From Nitrosopumilus sp. (GTDB lineage Archaea > Thermoproteota > Nitrososphaeria > Nitrososphaerales > Nitrosopumilaceae), in contig CBDBGZ010000007.1 of NCBI GenBank assembly GCA_965205425.1, forward strand, positions 53,203 to 117,202: 64,000 nucleotides of DNA, written 5' to 3'. Shown here one piece after another: positions 38,001-63,440 of the stretch. The notes under the pieces were generated by a model. The model saw only the letters and a list, made by a program, of their open reading frames with translations, had not been told where the DNA came from and did not search any database. Position 1 is the first letter of the stretch. The number at the start of each line of letters is the position of its first letter. The position numbers and the translations under genes are program-made.

Positions 38001-39360
38001 CATACAACATGTTGAAATGTATGTAAATCAGTTTGGCCCACAAATACTAAATGATTTAACTGAAACTATTGTAATTTATGATGAACAGTCAGGATTAGAA
38101 ATAATTGATCCATATGATTTGATAACAACTGCTAATGTAATCCCATCCATATCTGGAAACAAGGCCGTATATGAGATTATGATAGTCTTTGAAGATGAGA
38201 TTCCTCAATCTGATATAATATTGCGAGTTTGGGATACTCAACGAAATCAAGCGAAATTCCATTTACATGATACACTAATTGTTGAACTATCTAATCGGCC
38301 AAGTGGTATCATTTCATCTGAATCTACATCCGGATCCTCTGAATCTACATCCGGATCCTCTGAATCTGCATCCCAATCATCTGGATCAACTACATCTGAA
38401 TCTGCATCTGAATCTGCATCTGAATCTACATCTGAATCTGCATCTGAATCTGCATCCCAAACAACTACCTCTAGCACTGAATCTGTAATTGTAACTGATA
38501 ATTGGACTGATACACAACTATCTGTTCTAAAGAAGTGGGGTGGATTTGATACTGAAACTGCATCTGATGCTGATGTGCTGTCTGAATTTGGAGTAAAGGG
38601 TGTAAAAATCCCAGCATATGTATCTGATGTAACTAAATGGATCTTAAATGACGAAATTACTCCCAAAGAGTTTGTTAATCTGTTACAGTATCTAAAGAGT
38701 ATGGGTATGTTATCTGACGTTGATCAGACTGGCTCTTTCCCTGTAAATACTCAAGATGATCTTGAAGAATTTGTTGCAGATTCCTCACTCATGGATGAAC
38801 GACTCAAGTTTGAGTTTGATGAATCTACACTTAACTCCAAAGCTGATCTTGGTGATTTAGAAGACAAACTTAGAATTCTAAGAGCACTTGGAAATAATGA
38901 AATCATTCAGTCTGAACTTGAAAATTCTAATGCCGAGTTTGATGCATTAGATGATGCTGACTATGTAATTGACCAAAGAAACTCTGCATGGCTACGTAAC
39001 CCTTCTACTGTAACTCCATTTATGGAAAGTTTGATGACTAATGATTCTGCTTTAATTGCAAAGGCCATAATTGAAAATGATGTTGATTCTATCGTACCCA
39101 TAACTTCTATTGTAATCACAAACGCATATGGCGTGAATATTGTAATCACTGAAAAAACTCATGATTACAAACAAAGTGATGAACAGTGGTGGGGTGAAAC
39201 AAAATCTGATGGTGCTTACATAATGTCTGGCTCTGGCAGTGAAGAATATGGTGGATTGTACACTTCTGAGGCCTCTACTGTCATTACTGATAGCCAAGGA
39301 GACTTTATTGGAATAATAAAAGCAACTGTTAACTTTGAAAAGGCTCTTCTTTCAAATTAA
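32020..39360 (+). CDS. Giant secreted surface protein: 12 FG-GAP-like repeats, Ig-like repeats, Ser-rich linker, C-terminal Cache/PDC-like domain
   Basis: Signal peptide ..DAFA; 12 IGDxNxDG-type units; six ~119-aa PTF..G.LSVTFS units; TNAYG.N..DY.Q.DE.WW..G.FIGIIK tail. Confidence 0.85.
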   Translation: MLNRFNLSLLSVILVLGVASVVPIQDAFAATPARTVDTVSDPSDTFNIVSLTVSALTTSGADDIFEEMNLDENDLLFPNAVLSDDDHEFLKKKLLHSSWANSNTIDSLYNNNDNNENPLSESEKKTVHEFLLALHGDIDVLNEQSYPTVGGYWTVEFVTKGTHDLIVSAINATSFGAGLPDDVEFISLYDSDGSEIAPEFIYDDSGSNASVVFPDYSNDDVGSFKMLVHTPGKHHLKFEFGNDVAYANNNAYPNSTIEINDSTFNGPELSNSDQFGSSIVNIGDLNGDGTSDIAVGAPGDDDGGGSSGAIHILFMNDDGSVSQTIEINSSTQNGPELSNGDSFGASITNIGDLNGDGVLDIAVGAPGDDDGGTNRGAVHILFMNDDGSVTNTIEINDSTQNGPELSNGDSFGVSITNIGDLNGDGVLDIAVGATFDDDGGTNSGAIHILFMNDDGSVTNTIEINDSTQNGPELETADLFGSSIANIGDLNGDGVLDIAVGAQSDDDGGTNRGAVHILFMNDDGSVTNTIEINDSTQNGPELSNGDFFGSSIANIGDLNNDGTPDIAVDAHGNDDGGTNRGAIHILFMNDDGSVSQTIEINDSTEPGPRLSDNVLFGFSIANIGDLNGDGVLDIAVGAPDDSTGGTNRGAVHIIYLSTAVSHSGTIEQTIEINDSTPNGPDLSQNDIFGVSIVNIGDLNGDGTSDIAVGAQSDDDGGTNRGAIHILFMNDDGSVTNTIEINDSTPNGPSLDDGDNFGSSITNIGDLNGDGVLDIAVGAPNDDNGDTSTNPDFGAIHIMLMNDDGSVSQTIEINDSTQNGPELETADLFGSSIVNIGDLNGDGVLDIAVGATGDDDGGGSSGAIHIMLMNDDGSVSQTIEINDSTPNGPELETADLFGSSIVNIGDLNGDGVLDIAVGATGDDGGGTDRGAIHIMLMNDDGSVTNTIEINDSTPNGPSLDDGDNFGISIAGIVNLDSDRVSHIAVGAKFGDDAGRGNIHILFMNDDGSVSQTREINNSNTPSLDITGPTLFGRSIAPIGDHNGDGTPDIAVGESNHFSPHNGGVIHIIYLDKSVVVNTVSSTTADGEYDTGALVDITIVFSEPVTVTGTPQITLETGDNDRTADYTSGSGTDTLTFQYAVQSGDVSPDLNYVDVNSLMLNGGTITSVDSQSNRAVLTLPPPDLVLKVTPENAFGSLGNFKDLAIISGAPPTFESATLQEDIGLLSVTFSKELDSDSDTVALDGFTITDDLPEGIEVRLSVFLDGATHAIDPGSPNTIAITLTEMQRQQVVAYTSTNTGSNLHLDIAAGAIQDTLENDIAASEDNPITSISDAVAPTFVSGMIQEGTGVLSVTFSEAIDPSNIMVDSFTITDTITSNALPPVSLAGLAPAIDSGSPDTIKITLTEAQRQQVIGYTGTNDELHLDIAAGAVRDIAQNNIASSVDNEITMVDDTIQPTFVSGMIQEGTGVLSVTFSETIDPSNIMVDSFTITDTISSNALPPVSLAGLAPAIDSGSPDTIKITLTEAQRQQVIGYTGTNDELHLDIAAGAVRDTAQNDIEASEDNPITSISDAVAPTFVSGMIQEGTGVLSVTFSEAIDPSNIMVDSFTITDTISSNALPPVSLAGLAPAIDSGSPDTIKITLTEAQRQQVIGYTGTNDELHLDIAAGAVRDIAQNNIASSVDNEITMVDDTIQPTFVSGMIQEGTGVLSVTFSEAIDPSNIMVDSFTITDTISSNALPPVSLAGLAPAIDSGSPDTIKITLTEAQRQQVIGYTGTNDELHLDIAAGAVRDTAQNDIASSVDNEITMVDDTILPTFDSGVIDVGTGILSVTFSETIDPSHITVGGFTISDIIDNSLSVSLAGATPAVDPGSPDTITITLTGQQYEEIISYIRNSNNDELHLDIAAGAVRDTAQNDIEASEDNPITRTGTLPRIPSGGGSSGDNTPPSVYVGFDSDEFPLKYDGVNYQSHQFETIHTAMIETGEEFETTLTLYDNSGPRNIQHVEMYVNQFGPQILNDLTETIVIYDEQSGLEIIDPYDLITTANVIPSISGNKAVYEIMIVFEDEIPQSDIILRVWDTQRNQAKFHLHDTLIVELSNRPSGIISSESTSGSSESTSGSSESASQSSGSTTSESASESASESTSESASESASQTTTSSTESVIVTDNWTDTQLSVLKKWGGFDTETASDADVLSEFGVKGVKIPAYVSDVTKWILNDEITPKEFVNLLQYLKSMGMLSDVDQTGSFPVNTQDDLEEFVADSSLMDERLKFEFDESTLNSKADLGDLEDKLRILRALGNNEIIQSELENSNAEFDALDDADYVIDQRNSAWLRNPSTVTPFMESLMTNDSALIAKAIIENDVDSIVPITSIVITNAYGVNIVITEKTHDYKQSDEQWWGETKSDGAYIMSGSGSEEYGGLYTSEASTVITDSQGDFIGIIKATVNFEKALLSN
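36016..37443 (+). repeat. Four near-identical 357-bp tandem units (Ig-like domains)
   Basis: CCAACCTTTGTCTCAGGTATGATACAAGAGG recurs at 357-bp spacing. Confidence 0.9.
38317..38458 (+). repeat. Short tandem repeats encoding an SES(T/A) Ser-rich linker
   Basis: TCTGAATCT(G/A)CA 12-mers and 21-mers. Confidence 0.85.
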
Positions 39361-39393
39361 TTTTAATATTATCTTACCTGTCTAAGTAATTAC

Positions 39394-41511
39394 ATGGATA
39401 ATCCATCTTCAAAATTCTGGCTGTTTCTTGTTTTTGGTTTATTTCTTGTTTTAGTTGGTGCTATTTCAGATGATGTTCTTGCTGCAGAAAAAACAATCAC
39501 CTCAAAAAGTATATCCTATGAGACTACAGCAATAATTGAATTTACCAATAATGGTGAAGATGACATACACACAATAGTTATCTCAGTTAGTGATACTGTA
39601 TTTACCTCGTTTAAGCCCCAAAATGATTGGACATCTCCTATAGCTTCTGCAAAATCAATAACTTTTGTGACTTTTGATCCACTAAAAAATAATGAAACTG
39701 TCAAGTTTGGCATAAAAACTGAGACAGTAAATCCATTTCTCCAATGGAAGGCATTTGATAAAGACAAAATTTTGTTAGAGACTGGTATTGCATTGTCTGA
39801 AGACATTCCCTCTTTTCTAAATCCAATCAAACAAAAATCTGCTGATGATCCTGTAATTCTTTCTAATTCTACTTTTAAAATTGTCCCGGCTAATCCTTAT
39901 CCTGGTGCCACTATTCGTGTAACTGGTGATGATTTTGCCCCCAATTCGAGTTTAACTTTATTTTCAGTTGGGGAAAGATCCAAATCTTTTGTAACTGACG
40001 AAAATGGATTTTTTATGTTTACTATGAAAATCCCTGAAGATCAAAAACCAGAAAAAGTAAATTTCATTTTAAAAGATGATCTAAGAACTCAAAAAACACT
40101 TGGTGTTTTAATATCTAAAATAGAATCAGAACCTTTGCGTAATTTTGAATTTGTTGTTTCTGATATTGAAAGCAAATTTGATAGGAACGAATCTGTTGAA
40201 TTTTCAGGAATTGCAAATCCTGATTCCCCTGTTCTGATAAAAATTATGGATTCTGAAAATAATCCTTTTTCAACTGACGTACAAAATCCTGATTCTAATG
40301 GTGATTGGTCTGCAGAATTCTCTTTTTTACCTACTACACCTACAGGAATATATTCTGCTGAAATCACTGATGGAGAAAACACTATCACAAAATATTGGAA
40401 TCTTGTCACATCTAAACAATTACAGGTTGTTGCAACAAAACCTTTGTTTAAATCTGATGAGTTTATGACATTTCGTGGAACAGCTGTACCAAATGAACCA
40501 ATCTATTTGACTTTAGTTGATCCTCAAGGAAATTCTGTTTTATCTCAAAACTTTATTGTGCACACATCTGGTTTTTTTGAAATTAAATATCCTACAACTT
40601 CTCTAAATCTGGATGGGACCTATGTTTTTTATGCATTTCAAAATTCTGAAACTGATTTTATTTTTGTAGGTCTAAATGATTATCCACAAAAAATTATCTC
40701 TGCGCAACTAAATAATGTAAATTATGTTAATGATGATGTAGCGATACTTGGAATAACTGGTGATAATTTTCAAGATTTGACTTTGTCAATCATTGATGCA
40801 AATGATCGTGAACAATTTACCGATAAAATAGAACTTGATCCTAATGGTAAAAGAAACTATTCTCTAAATCTATCTTCCTTTTCTCCAGGATTGTACACTG
40901 CATTAGTTTCTATGGCTAGCTTACAGGCTTCTGATGAATTTACTGTGGACCTGAAATCCAGTCACATTCCCATTAATTTAAGCATGGTAAAAACAATGTA
41001 TTATCCTGGAGATTTCATATCTGTTACAGGTACTTCTCAACCTCTTACAAAAATTCATTTATTTTTAGTTGATCCTGATGGTGCAATAATTAATGAAAAA
41101 GATACGTTTATTGATGAAAATGGAAATATGATTACTACTCATTTTTTGATTCCCTATGATGAGTTATTTGGAAAATGGATTATTACAGTTGAAAGCGGTC
41201 TAAATTCTGAGAATTTTGAATTTCAAGTTAATTCTTTAGATGATGAAGGATTTGTTATACGTGTAACTGACATAATTTCTTCAGCTGTTGGAAAATTCGT
41301 TATAATAGAAGGTGTGGTACCTGAAGAACAAACTGTTCGTATTACTATTGATGATCCTGATGGTATTACTGTATATGAAACAACTATTGACACTACAGAT
41401 ACTGGGGAATTTGATTTGTTATGGACTGCTCCTTCTGATGCTGTTGGTACTTATTCTGTAACTGTTACAGATATCTATACAAAAGCAATTAGTACTGTAA
41501 TCGAGTTTTAA
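39394..41511 (+). CDS. Secreted multi-Ig-like domain protein
   Basis: Signal peptide; repeated DPxG..G.F/Y beta-sandwich modules. Confidence 0.7.
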   Translation: MDNPSSKFWLFLVFGLFLVLVGAISDDVLAAEKTITSKSISYETTAIIEFTNNGEDDIHTIVISVSDTVFTSFKPQNDWTSPIASAKSITFVTFDPLKNNETVKFGIKTETVNPFLQWKAFDKDKILLETGIALSEDIPSFLNPIKQKSADDPVILSNSTFKIVPANPYPGATIRVTGDDFAPNSSLTLFSVGERSKSFVTDENGFFMFTMKIPEDQKPEKVNFILKDDLRTQKTLGVLISKIESEPLRNFEFVVSDIESKFDRNESVEFSGIANPDSPVLIKIMDSENNPFSTDVQNPDSNGDWSAEFSFLPTTPTGIYSAEITDGENTITKYWNLVTSKQLQVVATKPLFKSDEFMTFRGTAVPNEPIYLTLVDPQGNSVLSQNFIVHTSGFFEIKYPTTSLNLDGTYVFYAFQNSETDFIFVGLNDYPQKIISAQLNNVNYVNDDVAILGITGDNFQDLTLSIIDANDREQFTDKIELDPNGKRNYSLNLSSFSPGLYTALVSMASLQASDEFTVDLKSSHIPINLSMVKTMYYPGDFISVTGTSQPLTKIHLFLVDPDGAIINEKDTFIDENGNMITTHFLIPYDELFGKWIITVESGLNSENFEFQVNSLDDEGFVIRVTDIISSAVGKFVIIEGVVPEEQTVRITIDDPDGITVYETTIDTTDTGEFDLLWTAPSDAVGTYSVTVTDIYTKAISTVIEF

Positions 41512-43058: not shown

Positions 43059-44134
43059 AGACCTCTTGCGTAATTACAAACAAAATCTTATCTTTCATTG
43101 AATTTAATTTCAAATAATTTCTAATCTTATGGAATCACAACAAACTCTTGCTTCCATCTTGTCTTGAAATTTACAATTCCACATACGATGTCACTTATTG
43201 CATCATATCTGCACAATCTATTCCTAAATGTCTCAGAATTAATCCTAAACTTTTTGATTTGAGAGATAATATGTTCTACTTTTATTCGGATTCTTGACTG
43301 TATCTTGTTCCATTCCTTTTGATGTATGGTCAGTTTTTTTCCTTTCTTTTTCTTGTATGGTAGAATGCTTGTCTGTTCTGGAAAATCTTTTTCCACTCCC
43401 AAATACCCAAGGTCATAAAATATCATCACATCTTCGTGTAGTGCAGGATACTTTATTTTCAGTATGGCATAATCATGTTTTTTACCTGGAGAATGTGGGG
43501 GTTTGTGGATTATCTCACCTTTCTGGTTTACGGTGTTTGGTTTTTTATTGTGTGTTTTTTTGCCTGAATAGTGAGTCTTTCTTTTCTTTTTGTTCTGGGG
43601 TCTTGGGATTGGTTGTTCAGTACCATCAGTCATTGCAATCAATTCTGGAAAGAACAGTTGGAGTTGCTGTACATCATTTATTTTTTTAGGATCAGAGTAT
43701 AGTTTTGCAGGAATAGGAACTGTTTTTCTTACTGCAGGCTCTAAATACCTGATGTTTCTGTAGACGTTGCTCTGGTCTAATCCAAACAGATATCCTGTCA
43801 ATTCACATGTCAGGTACATCCGATAGTAAACAAACAACATTACAAGCTGGTCTTCAAGACTCAAATCAAACTTTCGCCCAGCTCCGATACTTCTTTTTCT
43901 CTTTGCTTTGGATAATCTCTTCTTTTCTTCTATACGGTGATTCTTTCTGACGTCTCTTAGAATCACATCAAACTGTTACCTAGTCACTCCAGTAAAAGAG
44001 AGAAGTGATTTTGGCTTTTTTGAGAGTTGTTTGTATGTTAACATGAAATGTGTTAAGGTTGTTCTTAGCTTTGGATCTTGCTGTGAAGGAATTTGTGTAA
44101 TATGGTAAAATATGTCTAATTACGCAAGAGGTCT
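43059..44134 (-). mobile_element. IS5-family (ISL2-like) element type D, copy 1, inactivated
   Basis: 18-bp IRs AGACCTCTTGCGTAATTA; 3-bp TSD AGT; DGTE, DLGY, RIKVEH motifs; CAA to TAA near 43977. Confidence 0.88.
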
Positions 44135-45990: not shown

Positions 45991-47073
45991 TAGCGAAAAG
46001 ATAAAGTTCGTGAACTAAATTATTCCAAAACAAAAAACTTTTTGATCACTATGTATGGTAAAATTTGATGAACAAGTTAGAATCACTTGAAAGCAGCATA
46101 CAAAAAAAACTCCAAGGTTGCAGTAAGGATGCTTGCAGTGTTGATGATTCTAAAGGATGGAAAGGACATACAGTGCACTGCAAAGACACTGCATCGCTGT
46201 ACAAGCTGGGTGAGAAAATGGACGAGTCGTTTTGAGATAGATGGCCTCTACGACCACCCAAGAAGTGGTAGGCCAAGAACAATCTCCCAGACTCGAATGG
46301 ATGCTATCATGTCAAAAGCAATGCTAACTTTGTTTACCCCCATAATGTTGCAACAAAGTATCTTTTATTCCACTGGAGTAAAATTTCACATAACCCACAT
46401 CAGAAAGATAATGCACTAATACGGCATGTCTGCAAAAACTGCACAAAAATATCACATCAACCATGCAAGTATATCTGCTGTGAGAAGCTGGCAACAACGC
46501 ACCAAAAAGAGAATTTCACGCCTAAAAAAGAAAGGATTTGTCATTGCAATGGCTGATGAAGCATTCTTTGTAAGGGATACAAAAACAGGAAAAAAGTACT
46601 GGTCACCAGTTGCCAAGAGAATATTTCTTCCATATACAGGACGACATGAGAGTCTGGCAGTGTATGGTACAATTACAGAAAATGGTAATCAACTATTCAG
46701 AGTTTATGACAAATTCAATGCTGTAACATTTGTAGAGTACCTAAAGGAATTGCATCAGAAATGTGGCAAGATTGCAATCATTTTAGATAGAGCATCAGTT
46801 CACAAATCAAAGAAGGTAAAGGAATACCTTGCAGATAACAGAGATGTCAAACTAATCTGGTTGCCAAAGGGATCACCATACTTGAAGAACATGATAGAGC
46901 AGTGCTGGAAGATAAGCAAATATGCGTTGTTGGTATCAGAATATTATGCAATCTTTACAATAATGAATGATGCAGTGTCCGAATATTTCAGAGTGACAAA
47001 ATTCAAGCTTGATGTTGCAAATTATATCTTTAGAAATCCTGCAAAGATGTTTGCGAACTTTTGATCGTCGCTA
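45991..47073 (+). mobile_element. IS630-family element, copy 2 (both ends, internal stop)
   Basis: TA flanks; TAGCGA...TCGCTA ends; CAA to TAA at 46417. Confidence 0.9.
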
Positions 47074-48539: not shown

Positions 48540-49406
48540 AAACAAATGAAAATCCCTAGGGCAAGATTCTATCGGAATCATTTCTTATTGGCGTGTTACA
48601 TTTGGTGGGAATGTTGTCTTTGTATGAGGAAGTATTCAGATCGGGTAGACCATACGTGTATCCAACCATCCAGATGGTGCAACTGTTCATCATAAAGTCA
48701 TGGATGAGAATTCCAAGCAACAATACATTACATTATTTTCTTTTGACTAAAGGTATCAATGATAAATTGCTCAAGGTTTGCAGACTAACTCAAATTCCAA
48801 ACAGAAGAACCATTGACAGGAGATTCCAAGTTCTGCCAATTGGTGATATAATCAGTAATATGGGAAGTCTGTTTGTATCAGAGAAACTAGTCGATGACAT
48901 ATCTGCATCAGTGGATAGTTCCATGCTAAAAGCTGCAGGTCCAGTATGGCACAAATCAGATATGAAAAAGAATAGAATTCCAATCTCAGGAATTGACACA
49001 GATGCAAAATGGGGTTTTTCAAAATCAAAGGGTTGGGTATTTGGGTACAAACTGCATATGAGTTGTAGTACTGGCAAACTGGTTGTTCCACTATCTGCTG
49101 ATGTCTCAACTGCAAATGTTTCTGATGGTAAAATGTATGAAACGTTAGTCAAACCACTTGCAGGACTGGTTGGGAATATTTTATGTGATCCAGCATATGA
49201 TGATAAATCATTATATCAGTTTAGTGATCAGAGACATTTGAGATTGATTTGTCCTATCAAAATATATCCATCAACACCACCAGAGCGAATCAAACTTGCA
49301 GATTTTTATAATTCTGTAATTGGTCAAGAGTTATACTCACAAAGAAAAGTTTCAATTGAACCTTTATTTGAAATATTCAAAGATACGTTCAACATTAGAA
49401 CTGTAC
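48540..49406 (+). mobile_element. DDE (IS4/IS5/IS982-like) transposase remnant, truncated by type B IS
   Basis: VDSS, DTDAKWG..GYKLH, CDPAYD, RKVSIEPLF motifs; left boundary uncertain. Confidence 0.75.
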
Positions 49407-50380
49407 GGCCTTGTAGAAACCATCTGATTTTAACCCAATTGTGATACATTTTAGCTAATTTAGATCCATTAGGATTGTATTTGCAGATTACAGTATGGTC
49501 TCATCATACGTCAAAATGTGCAAAACACTACTCAATATAATCACCAGATGCAGAATTCCCAGGTTCTTACATCCAAAATCAAATCATATCTATTCTGTTT
49601 GGACACATCTCATACTCTTGGCAATACGACAGTACGAATCAAAGAGTTATAGAAGATTTACAGAATTTTTAGAAGAATGTGTAGGAATTCAGGAATATCT
49701 TGGTTTGTCTACCATTCCACATTACACCACACTACAAAAGGCAGCTGCAAGACTGGAAGGAAATCTGTTACATAAAATGTTGCAGGAATTCATTTTGTAC
49801 AAAAAAGTCAGACTGGTTCTAGCTGGAATTGATGGTAGCGGATTCAGTTACAGTACAGCATCATACTATTATACAAAAAGAGTACAGTTACGCAGGAATT
49901 TCCTAAAAGTTGTTGTTTGTGCTGACATGAATACACAGCTTGTTTGCTGTGTCATGACACACCACAACATGCAACATGATAATCCTGATTTTCTGCCATT
50001 GTTGTACAAAACCAACAATATTGTTCCAGTTGATATTGTGTTAGGTGACATGGGTTTTGATGATGAGAATAACCATGTCGGTGCAGAACAGATCAACACA
50101 GCTGCAATAATTCCAACTCGATATGGAACAGTTCCAATTTACAGAACCAGCGGAATTCACAGAAAGGAGATGAAGAGGAACTTTCCTGTACAATTGTACC
50201 ATCAGAGAAACAAATCTGAAACAATCTTTTTTGTGATCAAACAGATAATGTCAGGAGATGTCACATCAAGAAATGCTACAACTCAGGACAATGAGATGAT
50301 GTTGTACAGGTTAATTGCATACAATGCTTACAGGATTAGAAAATTAGATTTTGTTATTTTATTATGGTTTCTACAAGGCC
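49407..50380 (+). mobile_element. IS5/IS4-like DDE element type B, copy 2
   Basis: Same IRs; near-identical to 11434-12404 plus 3 bp; no TSD. Confidence 0.9.
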
Positions 50381-50625
50381 AAAAATTTCATATCTTTATC
50401 ATTTTTCATCTCCTCTTGTTTTATTGCATACCATTCAGTAAATTCTGGAATGGCATGGAATTCTTTTTGCATGACCAAAGTGATATTTCTTGCTAGTGAA
50501 ATGAATGAATTAAGATTTGCAAGGAATAGATTTGGTTTTTCTTTTGGGGATTTATTCATCTGATTATACATGTGCATGGTTTCTATCAATCTCTGTATTG
50601 TTGCACCCATAGTATTTCCATCCAA
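50381..50625 (-). pseudogene. Hypothetical gene 3'-truncated by IS
   Basis: ANLNSFISLARNITLVMQKEF..EWY..DMKF runs into the IS IR. Confidence 0.55.
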
Positions 50626-51898: not shown

Positions 51899-52940
51899 TG
51901 TTCTTTCCAGAAATTATTTCGTGTCACTTTCATGAGTAATTCCTCCATAGAATGCTTGGGTCTATGAGTATTTCGTTTGTTATCATCTTGGAGTGATACG
52001 CATCAGATGGTGTCTCCATGTTATCCAAGTCTAGTGCGCCATGAACTCTAATGTGATTGTACCAATGCATAAACTGCTCCACTGACTCAAAGTATTCTAT
52101 TTTACACTCAAAGATATCCCAGAACTTTTCTAGCTTACCATTTGTTTGTGGATGTCTCACTCTTGTACGAGAGTGCTTTACGTGATGTCTCATTAGTTGC
52201 TGCTCAAAGTCTACTGGCTTGTTATGATCAAGAGTATTGACATTTGATGTGAACTGTTTTCCATTATCAGATAGTACAGATGCTGGTCTACCGTGATTCT
52301 TTATTGCATCAGATAGTACTTCAGAAGAATTCACAGATGTTGCCTCATCATACACTCCGAAACCCGTGATAAATCGTGAGGCATCATCTTCAAATGCAAT
52401 TAGTTGTTTTCCTGCCCAGCGTGAATCATGTATTGTGTGCCAGTCAGTATGCCACAGTGAATTTGAATATTCACGTTCATACCTGATCCACTTTCTTCTC
52501 ATCTTTTTCCGTGGTTGCTCAACTGATAATCCTTCATCTAGCATAATCTTGTGGATGCGATTGTGGTTTATCTTGGTATTGTACAATTTTGATATGATTT
52601 TCTCAAGGTATAGTGCGTTTGTATGAAATTTTTCTTGAACTTGTTTGACTAGCTCTATCTCGTGTACAGTGACTGGCTTTTTTGGACGCCCTGGTCTTTT
52701 GAGTGTGGGAATCTTTTTGGTTTTTTTGTACTGAGAGTAGACTTGTTGTACTCTTCTAGGCGTTATCTTGAGGATTACTGAAATATCTAAATTCTTGACT
52801 TTTTCATTTTTAGATTGTATAATCCACCTGATCTTATTCTCATCTAACTTTACCATAGGTATGCCACGATACCCACGCATACGATAGTATGGGAATGATG
52901 CTCTCCTAGTTAAGGGGTGAAATAATTTCCGGAAAAGATA
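51899..52940 (-). mobile_element. IS481-family element type B, copy 1 (transposase 51930-52880)
   Basis: WHTD, SDNGKQF, PQTNGKLE motifs; imperfect IRs; 1042 bp; no TSD. Confidence 0.92.
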
Positions 52941-52991
52941 TCAGCCTAAATAATGCGTATTCATTAAATACGGCAATTTTTTACAAACATT

Positions 52992-53712: not shown

Positions 53713-54793
53713 AGACCTCTTGCGTAATTAGACATATTTTACCATATTACACAAATTCCTTCACAGCAAGATCCAAAGCTAAGAACAACCTAACGCATTT
53801 CATGTTAACATACAAGCAACTCTCAAAAAAGCCAAGATCACTTCTCTCTTTTACTGGAGTGACTAGGCAACAGTTTGATGTGATTCTAAAGGATGTCAGA
53901 AAGAATCACCGTATAGAAGAAAAGAAGAGATTATCCAAAGCAAAGAGAAAAAGAAGTATCGGAGCTGGGCGAAAGTTTGATTTGAGTCTTGAAGACCAGC
54001 TTGTAATGTTGTTTGTTTACTATCGGATGTACCTGACATGTGAATTGACAGGATATCTGTTTGGATTAGACCAGAGCAACGTCTACAGAAACATCAGGTA
54101 TTTAGAGCCTGCAGTGAGAAAAACAGTTCCTATTCCTGCAAAACTATACTCTGATTCTAAAAAAATAAATGATGTACAGCAACTCCAACTGTTCTTTCCA
54201 GAATTGATTGCAATGACTGATGGTACTGAACAACCAATCCCAAGACCCCAGAACAAAAAGAAAAGAAAGACTCACTATTCAGGCAAAAAGAAAAAACACA
54301 CAATAAAAAACCAAATCACCATAAACCAGAAAGGTGAGATAATCCACAAACCCCATGGTAGAATGCTGATTTGATCTTCAAAATCTTTTTCCACTCCCAA
54401 ATACCCAAGGTCATAAAATATCATCACATCTTCGTGTAGTGTAGGATACTTTATTTTCAGTATGGCATAATCATGTTTTTTACCTGGAGAATGATACAAG
54501 AAAAAGAAAGGAAAAAAACTGACCATACATCAAAAGGAATGGAACAAGATACAGTCAAGAATCCGAATAAAAGTAGAACATATTATCTCTCAAATCAAAA
54601 AGTTTAGGATTAATTCTGAGACATTTAGGAATAGATTGTGCAGATATGATGCAATAAGTAACATCGTATGTGGAATTGTGAATTTCAAGACAAGATGGAA
54701 GCAAGAGTTTGTTGTGATTCCATAAGATTAGAAATTATTTGAAATTAAATTCAATGAAAGATAAGATTTTGTTTGTAATTACGCAAGAGGTCT
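53713..54793 (+). mobile_element. IS5-family element type D, copy 2, with internal inversion
   Basis: Same IRs as 43059-44134; 54356-54493 inverted; no TSD. Confidence 0.88.
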
Positions 54794-55754: not shown

Positions 55755-56008
55755 ACGTATTGTTTTTGTGGATGACCCCCTATCACTAAATGGTGTTAAA
55801 CCATTAGTATTCACAATCAGTTTACGCGCATATAGAAGATTGTACCAATATGATAAATCCCTATGACTATTTTTACAAAAGAGATTATAGATAATCAGTA
55901 AAAACAATAGCCCCTTCCTTTACGCGTAAATTTGTGACAGTGACTAAAGATGTGACATGGTGTGTTTTGTTGGAATTTAATTATAACAAAGTGTATCCAT
56001 TCTAAAAC

Positions 56009-56227
56009 ATGTCAAGAAAAGATTTCAACAATCAAGCAATTCTAAAACGTCTTGTAGATGTCAAAGCAGAATGCAAAAGATGTCATAAAACTGCTCATCA
56101 GACCCAATTGAATCTACATCACAAAGATGGAGATTCAAGCAATGACGACTGGACAAACATGGTAATCTATTGCAATGCATGTCACAATGATGTAGAAGAT
56201 ACCATCCCACAACATCGTGACGAATAG
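56009..56227 (+). CDS. Small HNH endonuclease
   Basis: CxxC..LHHKDGD..N....N....CxxCH. Confidence 0.85.
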   Translation: MSRKDFNNQAILKRLVDVKAECKRCHKTAHQTQLNLHHKDGDSSNDDWTNMVIYCNACHNDVEDTIPQHRDE

Positions 56228-56500: not shown

Positions 56501-56845
56501 TTATGTTTTCTTTCTTTCTAGACTGACTTTCTTCTTGTTTTTTCGTGGAAGATGCTGAGTTATCAAAATGTTTCCACCCATCCAAAATAAAAATATCATA
56601 AAACCAAACTCCATTGTTATCAATGATAGATTATGTTCATAATCAAAAGTACTAGGATAATCGTTTAAAATCTCATATGTGTAAAGTTGGTTCATTCCTT
56701 TAGCAAATTCTATTCCTGACAGAATTCCTAAAAAAATTATCACACATGAAAAAATTGTCAAAGTTATGGTCTCTATTTTTTTATTTTTTTTCATATTATC
56801 TTCATAATACAGACTAGCAATAGTCGTTATAGTCCTTTTGTACAT
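56501..56845 (-). CDS. Two-TM membrane protein
   Basis: Two hydrophobic helices and basic tail. Confidence 0.55.
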   Translation of the reverse strand: MYKRTITTIASLYYEDNMKKNKKIETITLTIFSCVIIFLGILSGIEFAKGMNQLYTYEILNDYPSTFDYEHNLSLITMEFGFMIFLFWMGGNILITQHLPRKNKKKVSLERKKT

Positions 56846-56886: not shown

Positions 56887-57468
56887 TTATTTACTTCCTG
56901 ATTTTGATTGTGCAGATTTTATTGCATTGATCAATTCTATTTTGTATTCTTCTCGTCCGGGAACATTATTGTTTTTCCCCATTTCAATAAGACGATTTTT
57001 TTCTTGTTCCAATATCCCAATTTCATCTAACTGATTTTTCTTCCATACTAAAGCACGGTATATTGCCATAGGAACAGAATCTAGAATTTCTTTTTTCTTA
57101 AATAATTTTGAAAAAATCATTAGTTCTCTAATATATCGACTACTTCTTCCAAAGTCATGTTCTAATGCTACAGAATAATTTGTAATAGTAAAATCATTTT
57201 TTATATCAGAATCAAACTTTTGAAATAATTTACCTAATTTCCAACATGTCAAGCTAGACATATTTTTGGTTCGAGTTTTACTCAAATTAGTTCCAAAAAA
57301 TAATTTTTCAGCTTCTTTTACAAGTTCAAAATATTTTTTTTTAAATTCTTGAATTTTTTCTTGTGCATTTTCTACCTCGTTGTAATCATATACATCAATC
57401 ATTACATCAACTGCACTTTTTCCACTAGGAGATGTTAATTCTACAATTTTTATAGGAATTTTTGCCAC
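56887..57468 (-). CDS. Helical protein resembling the DUF1016/YhcG N-terminal domain
   Basis: WKLGKLF..ALEHDFGRSSRYIRELMIFSKLF pattern; GTG start 1 nt after upstream stop, GGAG before it. Confidence 0.5.
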   Translation of the reverse strand: MAKIPIKIVELTSPSGKSAVDVMIDVYDYNEVENAQEKIQEFKKKYFELVKEAEKLFFGTNLSKTRTKNMSSLTCWKLGKLFQKFDSDIKNDFTITNYSVALEHDFGRSSRYIRELMIFSKLFKKKEILDSVPMAIYRALVWKKNQLDEIGILEQEKNRLIEMGKNNNVPGREEYKIELINAIKSAQSKSGSK

Positions 57469-57469
57469 A

Positions 57470-58999
57470 TCATCCACTCCAAGTTTTGTGAAGTAAATCT
57501 CGATACACATTTAGAGTCTTTGTAGGATCCCAGTTTTCTTTTATTTCATCATTTTTGAATTTGATTAATGCCTCAATCAAAACTCTATGAATGTTGAATT
57601 TTTCAAATTTCCCAAATCGGTCAGATCTTTGCATTGTGATATAGAATGGATGAAGTACATTGATGCAAACTGCTCCTTGACTAAGATCAACCCATGCTTC
57701 CTCTTTTTCATCAGGAAATTCTTCTGTAGGTATGATGCGAATGCCTTTAGATTTTCTTTCTTTTAATTTTCCTGCCGTATCTCCATCTTCATCTTCAACA
57801 TGCCCCGTACCATCTCCAGTTCCTGGTTCTTTGCCTGGACCTGCTTTGACAGTTTTTGTTCCATCTCCAAGGGCATCCCCTGGGACTTCTGAAATGGCTA
57901 TATCTCCAGCATCATCAGGACCTGTAACCATTCTTTTTCTTGGATTCAAAAATGGGTTAAGATCTTTGAAATCTTTTGTTTTTAGTAATCTGTCTAATTC
58001 TTGAGTGAATTCATTAACAATTTCAGTTGTCTGAACTTTTGAAGTATTATCTTTTGTAGTTAATCCTTGTTCCTTAAGAAAATCAACAAAGAATTTCTGG
58101 GTTGCCTGTCTAGTTTGATTTGTTTCCCAATTATTTATAAAACTCTCTTTATCTGTTCTAATATGCTTTGCAAGATGGCTTACATCAACTAAACAAAAAA
58201 CGTTATTCCAAACTCCATCTCTAAGTTGAATTGGTTGTGAAATTGTTTCATTGAGTATTCTTTTTCCATGAACTGAATATACTATGTGGCGCCCTTGTTC
58301 TGGAATTTCATTACGTGAAACCCAACAGTAACAGTCAATTTTCTTTTTTTTCCAGATAAAGGATTTTTTAAATTTTTCTTTAGGATCAAAGGGTTCAATT
58401 TTTATTCCATCAATAATTACAGTAAATTGTTTTTTTAATAATGCAAAGTTCCACCAAAATTGGACTATGTGAGACAGTCTTTCTTTACAGTATGCATAAC
58501 CATGTTCATTTAATCTAACTCGATATGTTGTTCCATACTTGTGCTTGTAATTATTTCCAAAAATTTTAGAAAGATCATCAATTTCTTCCATGCCTACATC
58601 ATCTTCTGTCCTAAGCATACGGGAAGCCATAAAATTTGATTTTCCATCTCCTGTGATGGCAAATATTTCCCCACCGAGTGTTGAAGCTAGGAAAACTTTT
58701 GCACCTACTCCTGCAAATCCAATCCCTCCTCCTTTTGCTTTAACCGACGATGCAATGACATGATATTTTTTAAATTGTTGTTTAGTCATAGGTGTGCCAT
58801 TATTGTGAAAATTGATGTAACCGCCAAAACTAGTTTTTTCTAAAGTAATCTCTATTGTGGGATTTTTTATTTTATCTTCCAAAAATACATCTTGAGCATT
58901 TGCAAATGCTTCACACAGAAGAATGTCTTCATCTTTAAAATGATACATATCAAGAAGATCTTTTAAAACATGTACTCGGTCTACTTCTAATGATTTCAA
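57470..58999 (-). CDS. MORC/GHKL-family ATPase
   Basis: EAFANAQD, NNGTPM, GIGFAGVGAK, GTT boxes; C-terminal INVLHPFY. Confidence 0.8.
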   Translation of the reverse strand: MKSLEVDRVHVLKDLLDMYHFKDEDILLCEAFANAQDVFLEDKIKNPTIEITLEKTSFGGYINFHNNGTPMTKQQFKKYHVIASSVKAKGGGIGFAGVGAKVFLASTLGGEIFAITGDGKSNFMASRMLRTEDDVGMEEIDDLSKIFGNNYKHKYGTTYRVRLNEHGYAYCKERLSHIVQFWWNFALLKKQFTVIIDGIKIEPFDPKEKFKKSFIWKKKKIDCYCWVSRNEIPEQGRHIVYSVHGKRILNETISQPIQLRDGVWNNVFCLVDVSHLAKHIRTDKESFINNWETNQTRQATQKFFVDFLKEQGLTTKDNTSKVQTTEIVNEFTQELDRLLKTKDFKDLNPFLNPRKRMVTGPDDAGDIAISEVPGDALGDGTKTVKAGPGKEPGTGDGTGHVEDEDGDTAGKLKERKSKGIRIIPTEEFPDEKEEAWVDLSQGAVCINVLHPFYITMQRSDRFGKFEKFNIHRVLIEALIKFKNDEIKENWDPTKTLNVYRDLLHKTWSG

Positions 59000-60234
59000 A
59001 AGTTTGGTAGCCTCCCAGGTCTTGTAATTACATAATATTCACATCTATCCCACAAATGACTCAAACTTCGTTCCTGAGATATGATTGGATTATTTAGAAA
59101 GTCAGGATTAAAGAGATATTCAAGATCATCAAAGAGCTGTTTCCATGGAATTTTCTTATTAGTATACATAGGAGCTTTCTTTCCATCTTTAGATGTAATA
59201 TCAAAGTCTCGGTCACGTAATCTATTTGCGATTAATTTGCACAAAATTTCAAAAATATGTCGTTTACAGAGATTCATTGCAGCATCAATATTTACAGATT
59301 CACCTGACTCCATCCAAGGTTTAATGTGTGATGTAATCAATAATTCAAAAAAGGTTGTAACATTTTGTAATTCTAAATGTCTGTAATCTGTTTCTTGTTT
59401 CATTTCTTCATTAGAGATTGGAATTGTTCTAACTAGATGAGTTAAGCCATAAAACGCATTTTTGGATGTAAGTAATGGAAATTCAAGATTTCCTTGATGT
59501 TGTTTGAATTGTTCCACAATGTTGGAAATTTTAGTTTTAGGAACTTGTGCATCTGAAATGAATTTGTATTGGTTAACTAGAGAATCAGGATTATTTTTAA
59601 TTTTATCAAGAAGAATTGCAATGATAATTTCTTTAGTTTTTAATTTTTGTAATTTTTCTTTGGTGCTCAAATTTTTAGCCATATACATATCATTAATGAT
59701 TTCAGATTCTGAAGGTTCTCTTTTTAGTTCATTTTTCAATTTCTTTTTGATTTCATTAAATTGATCATTTAGAGAACCATATCTTCTACCAGCTGGTGGA
59801 TCTTTTCTAGCCTCATTTGACATGTATCCTAGAGTCAATCTTTCATCAGGTTGTAATTCCAAGTAAATTTTGGCAGGAGCTTTTTCAATTCCTAGTTCAC
59901 GTAAAACATGATATCGATGTTGTCCTGCTAGTAAGAGATACTGGTTATTACCTAAATCCTCTACAGTTAATGGTTCGATTAGTCCTTCAGCGTTAACTTG
60001 GGGCTCTAATCGTTTTAGTAAGCTAACATCTTTTTCACGAACAACAATTTTTTGATCTATTTTAATTTGAGATAATTCAATCTCATTTAGATAGAAATAT
60101 CTCAATCTATCTTGTTTTTCAAGCACTCTATCTACAAAAATCTCAGATTTTAGACTTTGAAATTGTGACAATCTTTGCAAATCCTCTTTTTGTTTTTTAT
60201 CTAAATATGATACATTTTGTGTCTCATTTACCAT
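58996..60234 (-). CDS. ParB/Srx N-terminal domain protein
   Basis: [25 protein letters not shown]; long uncharacterised helical C-terminus. Confidence 0.8.
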
Positions 60235-60446
60235 GACTTTGTCTCCTTAGAAAAAGAATATTTTGACTGGAATTTGTTACTTTTTTTCTGATTACACTTT
60301 GCACAAAGTACTTGTAGATTTCCCAAAATGTCAGAACCTCCTTTAGATTTTGGATAAATGTGATCGATTTGTAAATTATTTGCAGTTCCACATTGGATGC
60401 ATTTTGAATTTAATGCAAATACTTGCCTTCTAATATCTAATTTCAT
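60228..60446 (-). CDS. Stand-alone HNH endonuclease
   Basis: [18 protein letters not shown]....[12 protein letters not shown]. Confidence 0.92.
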
Positions 60447-62122
60447 GATTGAATCTCCAACACAAATTTAAGAACTTGTCTTTTACTTCCATTAACATCT
60501 TGTTCTTCTTTCCAATAGTGTTTGACATATCTTACTTTACCCACAAATGAATAGATGTTATCTAAAGAACCTCTTTTTCTTACTCCTTGCTCCTGATGCA
60601 TTTCTTTAAAAAACAACATTGGGGTATTTTCTGAATTTGCAATTTTGTAATTCCCTTTAGAGATAGTTTGATCACCCCTTTGCCCCTCACCTATAAATTT
60701 TATCAGATGTGCATCCTCATCAACATCATCCTCATATTGGTTAGAAAAAGTACTACAAAGAATTAAGATATTATTCTTTTTTGAATGCCTGATTCCTCCC
60801 ATGTTGCCAACACCAAATCTTTCTACTAATTCATCATTTGTAATATTTTGATCTCTTTGAATAATATCTATTTTTTTTAATTCATAATGTTTGATTGCTA
60901 GTCCATTTTCTTGTGGTTTAAATTCTAAAAATTTCTCAGATTCAGATATAGTTTTATTAGTTTTCTCTTCAATTATTGATTTCTTTTCAATATTTTCAGA
61001 GATTTTATTTTCTTCAACAGAACTTAATTCTTTTTTCCCATTCCTACATTTTCTACAATAAGATTGAGGTTTTTTGCTTTGAAGATTATTTGGATCAGAT
61101 AGTCTAAATCCAAAATATTTTTCAACTTTATTATCAAATTCAATTCCAGGTGATCCTTCTATTTTTGTTTCATGACATTTTGGACATTCTTTTACAATTT
61201 TAGACGTTGTTTCTACAGGGGGTATATTTTTAACAAAATTTTTAATTTTTTGTACCTTTGATGAACTTTTGATATTTGCATCAGACCATTCAATGTTACC
61301 CATATTGTTGGCATTTGGAAACTCATTTTCTGGAATATTGTGCTCTTTATTGTAGGTGGTAATTGCATTTACAAGATACTCAATTAATTCAATTCTTTGG
61401 AAATCTGCTAATTTTACATTTAATGTGTAATAAGGCAATCCAAAGTATTCTCCATCAGATGTCGCTAGTTCATGTTTTAGCAAGACATCATAAACTGAAA
61501 CTTTCAAATAATTTTTTACAGTTTCAAGATCTGCGGTATTTTTGTTATTAAAATAAGCTAATGACTCTGCAATGGCTCCCTTGTGTAATCTCCCACATTC
61601 TAATAATTCTTTTAACATTACATATTGATAATTGGCCTGAGGTTTGATTCCAGATTCAAAAAATTCTTTTAATTCATGATATGTTTTTACTGATTCATCA
61701 ATTTCTTCATAAATTGGTGTTGATTTTTTAGTCTCATCTGATTCTTCAACAATTCGTTGTTTTGTAGAGTCTTCTAACCACCAATTTTCATCGTCTGATT
61801 TTTTTGAGGAGTTTGTTTCTAATGAATCATCATTATCGGTTGAACTTTGGTTGCTCTCAGATTTTGTCAAACTTTTTACTTGTTCCAAATACTTTTCTTT
61901 GAATGTGCCCTTTCTAGGTCTAGTTCTTACTCGAATACTACAACAACTACAAAAAAGACCATCTCTAACTCCTTCAGGTGTAACAAAAATATCACAAACA
62001 TTACATCTGGAATTACCTGATGAGTAAAAACTGCCACTTTGCGGTCTTTTTGCTTTGAAATTAAGACATTTTCCTGTACATCTACTTTTAGAAATATTAT
62101 TCATACCGTCATAACCTCTCAC
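60443..62122 (-). CDS. Multidomain protein: Cys-rich Zn finger, helical domain, second Zn finger, C-terminal SRA-like domain
   Basis: N-terminus resembles 16582-16794; [49 protein letters not shown]...GN..YSFVG. Confidence 0.7.
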
Positions 62123-62179
62123 ACCATTACTTTTTTGTATATCTGGGTTTTTTTGTTTTCGATCATATTATCTGTTCTC

Positions 62180-62210
62180 ATATAGAACATATAGTGTGTT
62201 CTATATTTAA
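62180..62210 (-). promoter_or_regulatory. TATA box with adjoining palindrome upstream of the five-gene operon
   Basis: TTTAAATA on - strand (62203-62210); ATATAGAACA-N7-TGTTCTATAT (62180-62206). Confidence 0.6.
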
Positions 62211-62233
62211 AGATTAGCTGATCTGCCCCAGAT

Positions 62234-63275
62234 TGTTCTTTCCAGAAATTATTTCGTGTCACTTTCATGAGTAATTCCTCCATAGAATGCTTGGGTCTAT
62301 GAGTATTTCGTTTGTTATCATCTTGGAGTGATACGCATCAGATGGTGTCTCCATGTTATCCAAGTCTAGTGCGCCATGAACTCTAATGTGATTGTACCAA
62401 TGCATAAACTGCTCCACTGACTCAAAGTATTCTATTTTACACTCAAAGATATCCCAGAACTTTTCTAGCTTACCATTTGTTTGTGGATGTCTCACTCTTG
62501 TACGAGAGTGCTTTACGTGATGTCTCATTAGTTGCTGCTCAAAGTCTACTGGCTTGTTATGATCAAGAGTATTGACATTTGATGTGAACTGTTTTCCATT
62601 ATCAGATAGTACGGATGCTGGTCTACCGTGATTCTTTATTGCATCAGATAGTACTGCAGAAGAATTCACAGATGTTGCCTCATCATACACTCCGAAACCC
62701 GTGATAAATCGTGAGGCATCATCTTCAAATGCAATTAGTTGTTTTCCTGCCCAGCGTGAATCATGTATTGTGTGCCAGTCAGTATGCCACAGTGAATTTG
62801 AATATTCACGTTCATACCTGATCCACTTTCTTCTCATCTTTTTCCGTGGTTGCTCAACTGATAATCCTTCATCTAGCATAATCTTGTGGATGCGATTGTG
62901 GTTTATCTTGGTATTGTACAATTTTGATATGATTTTCTCAAGGTATAGTGCGTTTGTATGAAATTTTTCTTGAACTTGTTTGACTAGCTCTATCTCGTGT
63001 ACAGTGACTGGCTTTTTTGGACGCCCTGGTCTTTTGAGTGTGGGAATCTTTTTGGTTTTTTTGTACTGAGAGTAGACTTGTTGTACTCTTCTAGGCGTTA
63101 TCTTGAGGATTACTGAAATATCTAAATTCTTGACTTTTTCATTTTTAGATTGTATAATCCACCTGATCTTATTCTCATCTAACTTTACCATAGGTATGCC
63201 ACGATACCCACGCATACGATAGTATGGGAATGATGCTCTCCTAGTTAAGGGGTGAAATAATTTCCGGAAAAGATA
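62234..63275 (-). mobile_element. IS481-family element type B, copy 2 (transposase 62265-63215)
   Basis: 1042 bp, two substitutions seen versus copy 1; 15-bp TSD TGATCTGCCCCAGAT. Confidence 0.93.
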
Positions 63276-63440
63276 TGATCTGCCCCAGATCAGCGGATTA
63301 AATCATGCCTAAATTTCCACAAAATATGAAATCAAAACTTTTTGCGATCACAAATGATGATGATTATTTCAAACGGGACATCTTTTAGTATTCCTCTAAG
63401 GAGTATTTTCCTTTTTCTAAATTTTGGTAAATCTCAGAAA

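Follow-up and report, generated by a model that had tools for sequence, protein, structure and literature searches.

Type IV restriction enzymes that combine a winged helix-turn-helix (wHTH) domain, an SRA (SAD) domain, and an HNH nuclease domain have been described, and passages of PMC10853773 identify the sulfur-binding domain (SBD) of such enzymes as a wHTH; enzymes of this architecture are also covered in parts of PMC6224610 and PMC7461809. Prokaryotic GHKL ATPases of the MORC and paraMORC type occur in restriction-modification operons, a clamp or looping mode of action in restriction systems has been proposed for them, and MORCs are thought to be derived from prokaryotic restriction-system ATPases (Iyer, Abhiman, Aravind 2008, PMC2292703, in the sections on these proteins). 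A 64,000-nt stretch of DNA of Nitrosopumilus sp. (GCA_965205425.1, contig CBDBGZ010000007.1, positions 53,203-117,202 of the forward strand; referred to below as the window) contains an operon of five genes, g1 to g5 in the order of transcription, which unites parts usually studied apart: a reader and a nuclease of the type IV kind, a GHKL ATPase that would act as a clamp, and a putative switch of ParB fold. Results of our analysis indicate that this operon probably encodes a restriction-like system that depends on DNA modification and is controlled by a ParB-like autorepressor, most likely directed against viruses or plasmids. The system has no name as yet and is conserved in Nitrosopumilales. 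Ammonia-oxidising archaea are among the most abundant microbes of the ocean, and to our knowledge their defence systems are almost unstudied; the operon represents a concrete, conserved, and modular candidate for a defence system of these organisms.

All genes of the operon lie on the minus strand. The first of them, g1 (60443-62122, GTG start), encodes a 559-aa protein assigned by us, based on its open reading frame (ORF), predicted model, and family alignment, as a putative reader of modified DNA composed of a Zn-ribbon, a winged helix, a second Zn-ribbon, and an SRA domain. It is followed by g2 (60228-60446), encoding a stand-alone HNH nuclease of 72 aa, and by g3 (58996-60234), encoding a 412-aa ParB-like protein with a ParB_N domain, a putative operator-binding regulator that would bind a nucleoside triphosphate (NTP). 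The two distal genes encode a GHKL ATPase of 509 aa (g4, 57470-58999, TTG start) and a small helical protein of DNA-binding type, which is the constant partner of g4 (g5, 56887-57468 if started at a GTG or 56887-57510 if started at an ATG). The overlaps are of 4 nt (g1/g2), 7 nt (g2/g3), and 4 nt (g3/g4), and the GTG of g5 at 57468 is one base past the g4 stop codon (57470-57472); the homology of g5 to its relatives starts at this GTG. In the ORF list the coordinates and junctions agree with those of an earlier note on this DNA, which had claimed five co-oriented, overlapping or abutting genes forming one operon, and its statement that no methyltransferase or dnd gene is present within the unit is borne out by Pfam and PADLOC scans.

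The operon was compared with related loci, labelled L001, L091, and so on. With the g4 profile, 117 of 132 candidates in genome contigs and 333 of 352 in metagenome contigs were recognised as relatives, and the best 80 of each were kept; the locus counts given here refer to 61 loci with a g4 at least 35% identical over 200 aa, with one duplicate contig removed and the near-identical pairs L087/88, L100/101, L107/108, and L127/128 retained. Of the 28 loci that extend 2300 nt or more upstream and 400 nt or more downstream of g4, 14 carry all five genes in the order of the window, which is far beyond chance; the homologues do co-occur elsewhere. Two further loci (L103 and L114) contain g1 and g3 without HNH, and in one (L001) g1 directly precedes g4, as it does also in the shorter contigs L090, L115, and L129. 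Neither g1 nor g3 is present upstream in the remaining 11, ten of which contain g4-g5 alone and one of which (L007) contains a truncated g4 and no g5. The g5 gene directly follows g4 in 47 of the 49 loci with room for it, g3 directly precedes g4 in 39 of 57, and HNH is encoded in 20 of 22 g3-bearing loci (among the 35 loci that extend 1500 nt or more upstream of g4).

While the unit of five genes proposed earlier recurs, it is larger in most ParB-bearing relatives. In 16 of 23 g3-bearing loci, but in none of 14 g3-less ones, the gene next to g5 encodes a Cas4-like PD-(D/E)XK nuclease (about 223 aa). In L109 a PIN-domain gene (Pfam PIN, 2.2e-5) precedes g1, and its homologues (81-85% identical) occupy this position in L089 and L082. 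The Cas4-like sixth gene is absent after g5 of the window, where a search for its remnants gave one 28-aa match (E 0.045) that we do not claim as such. The segment that replaces it contains an ORF for a hydrophobic protein of 114 aa (56501-56845) with no relative in any fetched locus, and nucleotide homology to the relatives resumes about 910 bp beyond g5 (55901-55975 vs. L091:10852-10926 and L094:8995-9049).

The closest described counterparts of the first two genes are the type IV enzymes ScoMcrA, SprMcrA, and TagI. The g1 model, built on 20 relatives, has a mean pLDDT of 71, with values of 80-90 in the domains. In the family alignment, the N-terminal Zn-ribbon (aa 15-61, 61940-62080) contains near-invariant Cys residues 15, 19, 40, 43, 58, 60, and 61, the winged helix (aa 143-260, 61343-61696) is the most conserved part of the family, with invariant N164, Y165, and Q166, and the second Zn-ribbon (aa 311-365, 61028-61192) has a CPKC...CRKC pattern and is similar to phrog_34160 (9.1e-6). 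The C-terminal domain (aa 419-559, 60446-60868) was assigned as SRA by fold searches with VIA and Foldseek. Its best superposition in VIA is with the SRA of ScoMcrA (5zmm_A; Z 13.6, root-mean-square deviation (rmsd) 2.7, 125 residues aligned), closely followed by the SRA of SUVH5 (3q0b_X, Z 13.5), with LpnPI, TagI, AspBHI, MspJI, and UHRF1 also matched; in Foldseek there were 48 matches at E<=0.001, with 5zmn_A at the top (E 1.8e-6). The SRA-like reader postulated in the earlier note is therefore supported at the level of fold. The winged helix superposes in VIA on the winged helices of ORC/Cdc6 proteins (Z 8.6 and 8.3) as well as on the SBDs of ScoMcrA (5zmo_A; Z 7.1, rmsd 3.1, 104 residues aligned) and SprMcrA (Z 6.8), the SBD matches being fold-level ones. 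In 13 of 20 aligned members of the g1 family, the winged helix is separated from the second Zn-ribbon by an additional EVE domain (profile vs. PH1033, 2.5e-12); this insert is absent from g1 of the window and from its closest relative, L091. Single-sequence searches of PDB with g1 and with g4 gave no useful match.

The HNH assignment of g2 holds as well, as the protein matches Pfam HNH_5 (6.4e-14), the IscB HNH region of NCBIfam (5.5e-14), and the IscB/Cas9-type HNH of PDB structures (2.6e-7), with the catalytic and zinc residues of the CxxC...DH...N...CxxC pattern kept. The order of winged helix, SRA, and HNH is common to g1+g2 and the ScoMcrA/SprMcrA/TagI-type enzymes. However, in the latter the reader and nuclease form one polypeptide, whereas here HNH is a 72-aa protein of its own, encoded apart from g1 in the window as well as in each of the 21 relatives with a g2 gene. 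The g1 protein differs additionally by its two Zn-ribbons, and by EVE in the family members mentioned above, and the g1+g2 pair is embedded in an operon with genes encoding ParB-like, GHKL, and g5 proteins. Together, g1 and g2 represent a wHTH-SRA-HNH enzyme in split form, decorated with Zn-ribbons.

The third protein, g3, matches ParB_N with 29.5 bits (Pfam cut-off 26.3), and 19 of 19 members of its family also score above this threshold. Within aa 68-175 its profile matches Noc (2.8e-9), Spo0J, and CTP-binding ParB structures (ParB-CDP), in agreement with its earlier designation as ParB-like. Residues G104, H106, and R107 are invariant and Q105 nearly so, N140, E141, and R143 are invariant, and these motifs of the putative NTP site (the GxxR and N..R boxes) align with the ParB boxes; where the GERR box has an acidic residue, g3 has Gln. 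The remaining approximately 240 residues gave no match, and the g3 family, with 106 clusters, is a narrow one in which identities are at least 52% in nearly all cases. Of the two roles that the earlier note had offered for ParB/Srx modules in such loci, NTP binding and nuclease activity, the first is compatible with the motifs, but the operators described below and the pattern of identities make an operator-binding regulator likelier than a nuclease. Regulators of the ParB superfamily with an NTP-site motif, such as DndB/DpdB and KorB, stand at the head of defence or modification modules, as g3 does. KorB possesses a cytidine triphosphate (CTP) switch, as titles of its PDB entries also indicate. 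DndB has been described as a negative transcriptional regulator of dnd genes (PMC10853773, in the passages on this protein), and DndB/DpdB-like proteins precede g4-g5 in L010 and L014. Nevertheless, we rejected the assignment of g3 itself as DndB or DpdB, since it has no match to Pfam DndB at E<=0.1 or to PADLOC DndB/DpdB, and no BLAST similarity to the DndB-like protein of L010.

As in the case of KorB and DndB, the promoter of the operon is associated with palindromic operators, although g3, unlike DndB, is assigned to them by inference. Upstream of g1 in the window, L091, and L094, a TATA box (62204-62211, minus strand; TTTAAATA, kept in L091 and L094 and replaced by TTTATATA in L134) lies between two 17-bp palindromes, O1 upstream of it and O2 before a conserved ATGATC start. 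O2 (TGTTCT-N5-AGAACA, 62173-62189, minus strand) is situated downstream of the TATA box, ahead of the ancestral g1 start, occupies the same place in 12 related loci, and occurs once in the 2.2-Mb genome; O1 has the sequence TGATCT-N5-AGATCA. A search of the 1.39 Mb of fetched loci for TGTTC-N7-GAACA or TGATC-N7-GATCA gave 23 matches vs. 2.6 in shuffled sequences. Twenty-two of them fall into 12 g3-bearing operons, ten of which have promoter pairs 45-47 bp apart. Since the operators are unchanged even where the identity of g1, g4, and g5 drops below 50%, and since they are absent in g3-less loci, g3 is the most likely, predicted operator binder. The conserved double operator offers a direct experimental handle on the regulation of the operon.

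The g4 protein consists of an N-terminal Bergerat fold, a Gly/Asp/Pro-rich linker (approximately aa 370-430), and a conserved C-terminal domain. Residues E30, N34, and D37 and the glycine loop GIGFAGVGAK are invariant in all 63 g4 relatives. The best PDB matches of the g4 profile are the N-domains of TRAP1/Hsp90 (6.3e-4), with Topo VI-B and MutL matched too and MORC3 at 0.038; a sacsin-type N-domain model matches weakly (1.3e-4), PF13589 is found in distant relatives, and HATPase_c_3 in Atlas clusters. Pfam Morc6_S5 is not detected in g4 of the window at E<=0.1 and is present in 27% of members of one look-alike Atlas cluster. Thus, of the MORC ATPase of the earlier note, the GHKL fold stands, owing to the invariant motifs and the profile matches, but membership in MORC is not shown, as the best matches are of the Hsp90/TRAP1 type and the S5 domain is not demonstrated. 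Judged from its sequence, g4 fits the theme of restriction-system GHKL ATPases, but could be assigned neither to MORC nor to a paraMORC family.

With the MORC and paraMORC systems, as presented in the relevant sections of PMC2292703, the operon shares a GHKL ATPase of about 500 aa accompanied by a nuclease (HNH), methylases near the distant relatives, and a sporadic distribution; type IIG methylases and SNF2-PLD proteins adjoin distant g4-g5 pairs. It differs from them in the lack of a superfamily II helicase or methylase in the window operon, in the constant partner g5, and in an Asn residue in motif II of g4. The word ParB is absent from the main text of PMC2292703. The involvement of a GHKL-type ATPase in defence is a feature shared with Tiamat, but its TmtA is presented, in the portion of 10.64898/2026.09.30.754977 that describes it, as a single large GHL ATPase-DNase, whereas g4 is without the NOV_C nuclease domain. 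The TmtA model does not match g4 of the window at E<=0.1, and two distant relatives match its N-terminal ATPase motif alone (3.8e-4).

The model of g5 is of high quality (pLDDT 92.2, pTM 0.85). In VIA it is similar to Spo0J (Z 7.5), the ParB DNA-binding domain (7.4), and the KorB DNA-binding domain (6.2), and Foldseek pointed to the Noc DNA-binding domain with a probability of 0.91, with no match at E<=0.001. The scores are middling and the two programs agree, which suggests a fold-level likeness of g5 to the ParB/KorB DNA-binding domains, to be treated as a lead. The g5 protein matches no family model (Pfam at E<=0.1), and its profile has no match in PDB at E<=10; the earlier assignment of g5 as DUF1016N-like is not supported. 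The fold searches lead to ParB-type DNA-binding domains, and no DUF1016 structure is present among the matches listed, although such an absence does not amount to exclusion. The g5 family has few members, with 206 representatives at E<=1e-3 out of 1.84 billion; the 150 best listed ones are all of 293 aa or less, so that no fusion was seen among these. The prediction of a g4+g5 complex gave a median score of 0.25 against a mark of 0.32 and, made without controls, is evidence neither way. A tandem duplication of g5 occurs in L089 (5665-6231 and 6224-6778), the copies being 45% and 57% identical to g5 of the window.

In 28 of 73 distant loci (L008-L080), hidden Markov models detect a g5-like ORF directly after a g4-like one, and distant g4-g5 loci include those of Bathyarchaeia, Micrarchaeota, Thermoplasmata, Halobacteriota, Planctomycetota, and Chloroflexota. 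The GHKL ATPase and g5 thus form the older, two-gene core of the system, which reaches across archaea and bacteria. The neighbours of the distant pairs were surveyed by means of 62 proteins chosen from 227 listed, with 27 more for PADLOC. Type IIG restriction-methylases adjoin the core in L015, L024, and L027, proteins of the DndB/DpdB-like ParB family in L010 and L014, and in three bacterial loci (L064, L070, and L078) the gene after g5 encodes a further recurrent partner, a protein of some 490-590 aa that carries a sigma-70 region 4 helix-turn-helix. Also found near the core are OLD/GajA (L002), SNF2-PLD (L005, L139), TIR (L017), a Dsr1-like protein (L101), and NurA-HerA. The Dsr1-like protein of L101 (9432-12656; 1074 aa, PADLOC 5.4e-39) is encoded directly after the operon, with an integrase gene upstream, which is a defence-island setting.

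The distribution of the system is patchy. While it occurs in both marine and lake Nitrosopumilales, g4 was found in only 10 genomes among the 301 of the family, and 7 of its 27 genera are represented. The pattern of similarities between particular operons differs from gene to gene. In a comparison of 16 operons (120 pairs), g3 has a median identity of 78%, g2 of 64%, g4 of 50%, and g5 of 47%, and the identities of g3 and g4 are uncorrelated (Spearman 0.02), compared to 0.43 for g4 and g5; in some pairs g3 is 90-92% identical and g4 42-45%. For instance, g4 of the window is closest to that of L081 (92%), whose g1 is 44% identical, while g1 of the window is closest to that of L091 (82%), which indicates that modules have been exchanged between operons.

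According to the mechanism we favour, g1 would detect a modified base, be it cytosine or some other one, in foreign DNA, and g5 would bring a g4 dimer to this DNA. The g4 dimer may serve as an ATP-gated clamp or looping device, in keeping with the proposal made for MORC/paraMORC ATPases, and might couple recognition to cleavage by the HNH nuclease g2 and, in most relatives, also by the Cas4-like nuclease. Possibly, g3 binds O1 and O2 as an NTP-dependent autorepressor, in a manner of DndB and KorB in their own systems, and a toxic module would in this way be tightly controlled. The reader and the ATPase are linked also in the loci (L001, L090, L115, and L129) in which g1 directly precedes g4-g5 with neither HNH nor ParB. 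No match to the operon exists in PADLOC-DB v2.0.0, in line with the earlier view that this is not a named system: its models did not match g3, g4, or g5, and gave no convincing match for the tested distant g4 and g5 proteins. A described defence system with GHKL and ParB proteins was not found in the literature, the supplements of which may list such neighbourhoods. The Menshen system (NsnABC), as outlined in passages of PMC12065111, resembles the operon in combining a ParB-superfamily protein with a DNA-binding domain, an ATPase, and nuclease effectors in strongly polymorphic modules, but it comprises ParB-DUF262, an ABC ATPase (NsnB), and the effector NsnC instead of a ParB_N protein and a GHKL ATPase, and the Nsn models of PADLOC match none of the five proteins.

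Several results weigh against this mechanism. While the folds, motifs, gene order, operators, and distribution were observed, all activities and contacts in it are deduced from them. The genome of the host contains three identical, intact genes for a C5 methyltransferase (L162-L164; C8:11738-12772, C8:207910-208944, and C9:9906-10940; Pfam 1.4e-75), so that a plain rule by which 5-methylcytosine (5mC) means foreign fails unless a further specificity is involved, and a plain 5mC nuclease would threaten the host. Of the modification-dependent anti-virus or anti-plasmid complex suggested earlier, the reader, nuclease, and ATPase on separate genes are retained. Furthermore, the canonical Asp of the GHKL motif II (DxGxG; residue 66, 58802-58804) has given way to Asn in 39 of 63 family members, g4 of the window included, with Asp in the other 24. 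The carriers of Asn all belong to the Nitrosopumilales-type clade, the second Gly of the motif is Pro in them, and Asp occurs at the next position in 10 of the 39; the canonical DNGxGM is kept in distant g4 relatives. The same Asp to Asn change in Hsp90 abolishes ATP binding. As this Asp contacts adenine, ATP binding by g4 is not assured. Many of the distant g4-g5 pairs lie among housekeeping genes with no nuclease nearby, and the casposon-type genes beside L091, L094, and L103 fit a role for a mobile element itself. Finally, the copy of the operon in the window may be partly disabled, by the insertion into O1 and by a frameshift at the 5' end of g1, both of which are described below. As a separate observation, the C5 methyltransferase genes of the host adjoin genes of response-regulator and histidine-kinase type, the whole being either a repeated segment or an assembly duplication.

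The operon might alternatively comprise two independent systems under one promoter, a split type IV enzyme (g1+g2) and a GHKL+g5 pair, with the Cas4-like nuclease where present, that responds to an unspecified trigger; g3 would then regulate both, and there would be no contact between the reader and the ATPase. The absence of g1 and g3 upstream in 11 of 28 loci, ten of which have g4-g5 alone, and the wide spread of g4-g5 in other phyla agree with such a division, as do the independent action of the fused wHTH-SRA-HNH enzymes (PMC10853773 and PMC7461809, in the parts concerned), the tracking of g3 by g2, and the exchange of g4-g5 as a cassette. We nevertheless regard it as rather unlikely, because tight overlaps extend through all five genes and because a reader that stands directly before g4-g5 with no HNH or ParB gene, as in L001, L090, L115, and L129, has no nuclease of its own and would work with g4-g5. 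A role in the maintenance, partition, or silencing of a mobile element, casposon-like or other, in which the ParB-like protein with a parS-like palindrome, the ATPase, and a DNA-binding adaptor would be at the service of the element, with SRA and HNH directed against competing elements or serving as an addiction module, is suggested by a protein-primed PolB gene that lies, together with small genes, ahead of the operon in L091 and L094 (L091:976-3734 and L094:101-2106), by a Cas1 fragment in L103 (2659-3345), and by the integrase of L101. Indeed, family 1 casposons of these archaea carry a variable nuclease cargo (PMC6563490, in the section on these elements), and in some relatives the system may be a cargo of family 1 casposon-like elements. 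The ParB gene g3 is, moreover, the most conserved one, and the palindromes resemble ParB sites in form. However, these palindromes were found only at the promoter of the operon itself, with O2 present once in the genome of the host, and this genome contains neither Cas1 nor protein-primed PolB (PF03175) above cut-off. Searches of 50,697 phage records, 72,556 plasmid records, and the IMG/VR contigs gave no relative of g4, and g4-g5 adjoins also chromosomal housekeeping and restriction-modification genes, all of which makes the element's own use of the operon very unlikely.

The presence of an intact host C5 methyltransferase in three copies, and the link between the SRA reader and the GHKL ATPase even where HNH is lacking (L001, L090, L115, and L129), would also agree with the reading of cytosine methylation of the host or of a provirus, followed by repression or compaction of the DNA instead of its cleavage. 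This would be a prokaryotic parallel to the association of an SRA reader and a MORC ATPase in eukaryotes, and the presumed descent of MORCs from restriction ATPases (PMC2292703, as cited above) is in its favour. We consider it highly improbable, given the intact HNH in the window and in 20 of 22 g3-bearing loci, the Cas4-like nuclease in 16 of 23, and the lack of a MORC assignment for g4. According to a bolder proposal, the GHKL ATPase would belong to one machine with the SRA (and EVE) reader, in which a modified base would load an NTP-gated clamp, made of the g4 dimer and g5 and switched by g3, that compacts or silences foreign or methylated DNA, with cleavage being optional. Such a machine, in which Asn of motif II would mark a changed use of nucleotides, might be an archaeal forerunner of the eukaryotic SRA-MORC pairing; we find this idea quite unlikely. 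In any case, the association of an SRA reader with a GHKL ATPase is relevant to the proposal that eukaryotic MORC silencing originated from prokaryotic restriction systems.

The restriction-like system with its autorepressor is represented in the window by a reduced copy, devoid of EVE and of the sixth nuclease gene and possibly down-regulated. An insertion sequence (IS) element encoding an rve transposase of 316 aa is inserted in O1 (62234-63275, or to 63276, minus strand) and flanked by a 15-bp target duplication (62219-62233 and 63276-63290). The promoter-side copy of the duplication retains 15 of the 17 nt of O1, while the intact O1 palindrome (63276-63292, minus strand) is now separated from the promoter by the IS; the ancestral O1 is intact in L091. 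One end of the IS resembles an operator half-site. Short remains of the upstream gene of L091 and L094 and of the intergenic region are found beyond the IS, and the window ends with the contig about 1.9 kb upstream of g1. The transposase matches rve (9.5e-15) and IS481 of NCBIfam (4.5e-47), the latter with 160.9 bits, which is below the cut-off of 224. A second copy of this IS (51899-52941) lies 10.3 kb away in the same orientation; the copies are of 1043 bp and 99.8% identical. No matching target duplication was found at this second copy, the flanks of which may be rearranged. We therefore rejected a composite transposon carrying the operon, as the IS on the operon side was inserted by itself, with a 15-bp duplication around it, and no matching duplication flanks the other copy.

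The beginning of g1 is also altered. The A-tract at 62148-62154 has seven A residues (A7) in the window vs. eight (A8) in L091 and L094, which puts the ancestral ATG (62164-62166, minus strand) out of frame; it now opens a mini-ORF of 15 codons (62119-62166), the stop codon of which (62119-62121) overlaps the g1 GTG at 62122. The shortened tract could represent decay or a slippage-type on/off switch. The claim that all frames of the operon are intact needs to be qualified in this respect, as the recognised domains of g1 are all intact downstream, but its 5' end has a 1-nt deletion.

The surroundings of the operon are rich in IS elements and, in keeping with the earlier note, partly decayed. 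They contain genes of DDE transposases at 43127-43966, 46426-47064, 48593-49444, and 49495-50496, and a truncated one at 53802-54374. A second stand-alone HNH protein of 72 aa (Pfam HNH 1.4e-4; PADLOC ZorE-type HNH region 1.2e-5) is encoded on the plus strand at 56009-56227, about 650 bp beyond g5 and convergent with the operon. Upstream of the IS-rich region, at 32020-41511, a gene encoding a 2446-aa protein rich in FG-GAP repeats is followed by one for a 705-aa MG2-domain (alpha-2-macroglobulin-like) protein.

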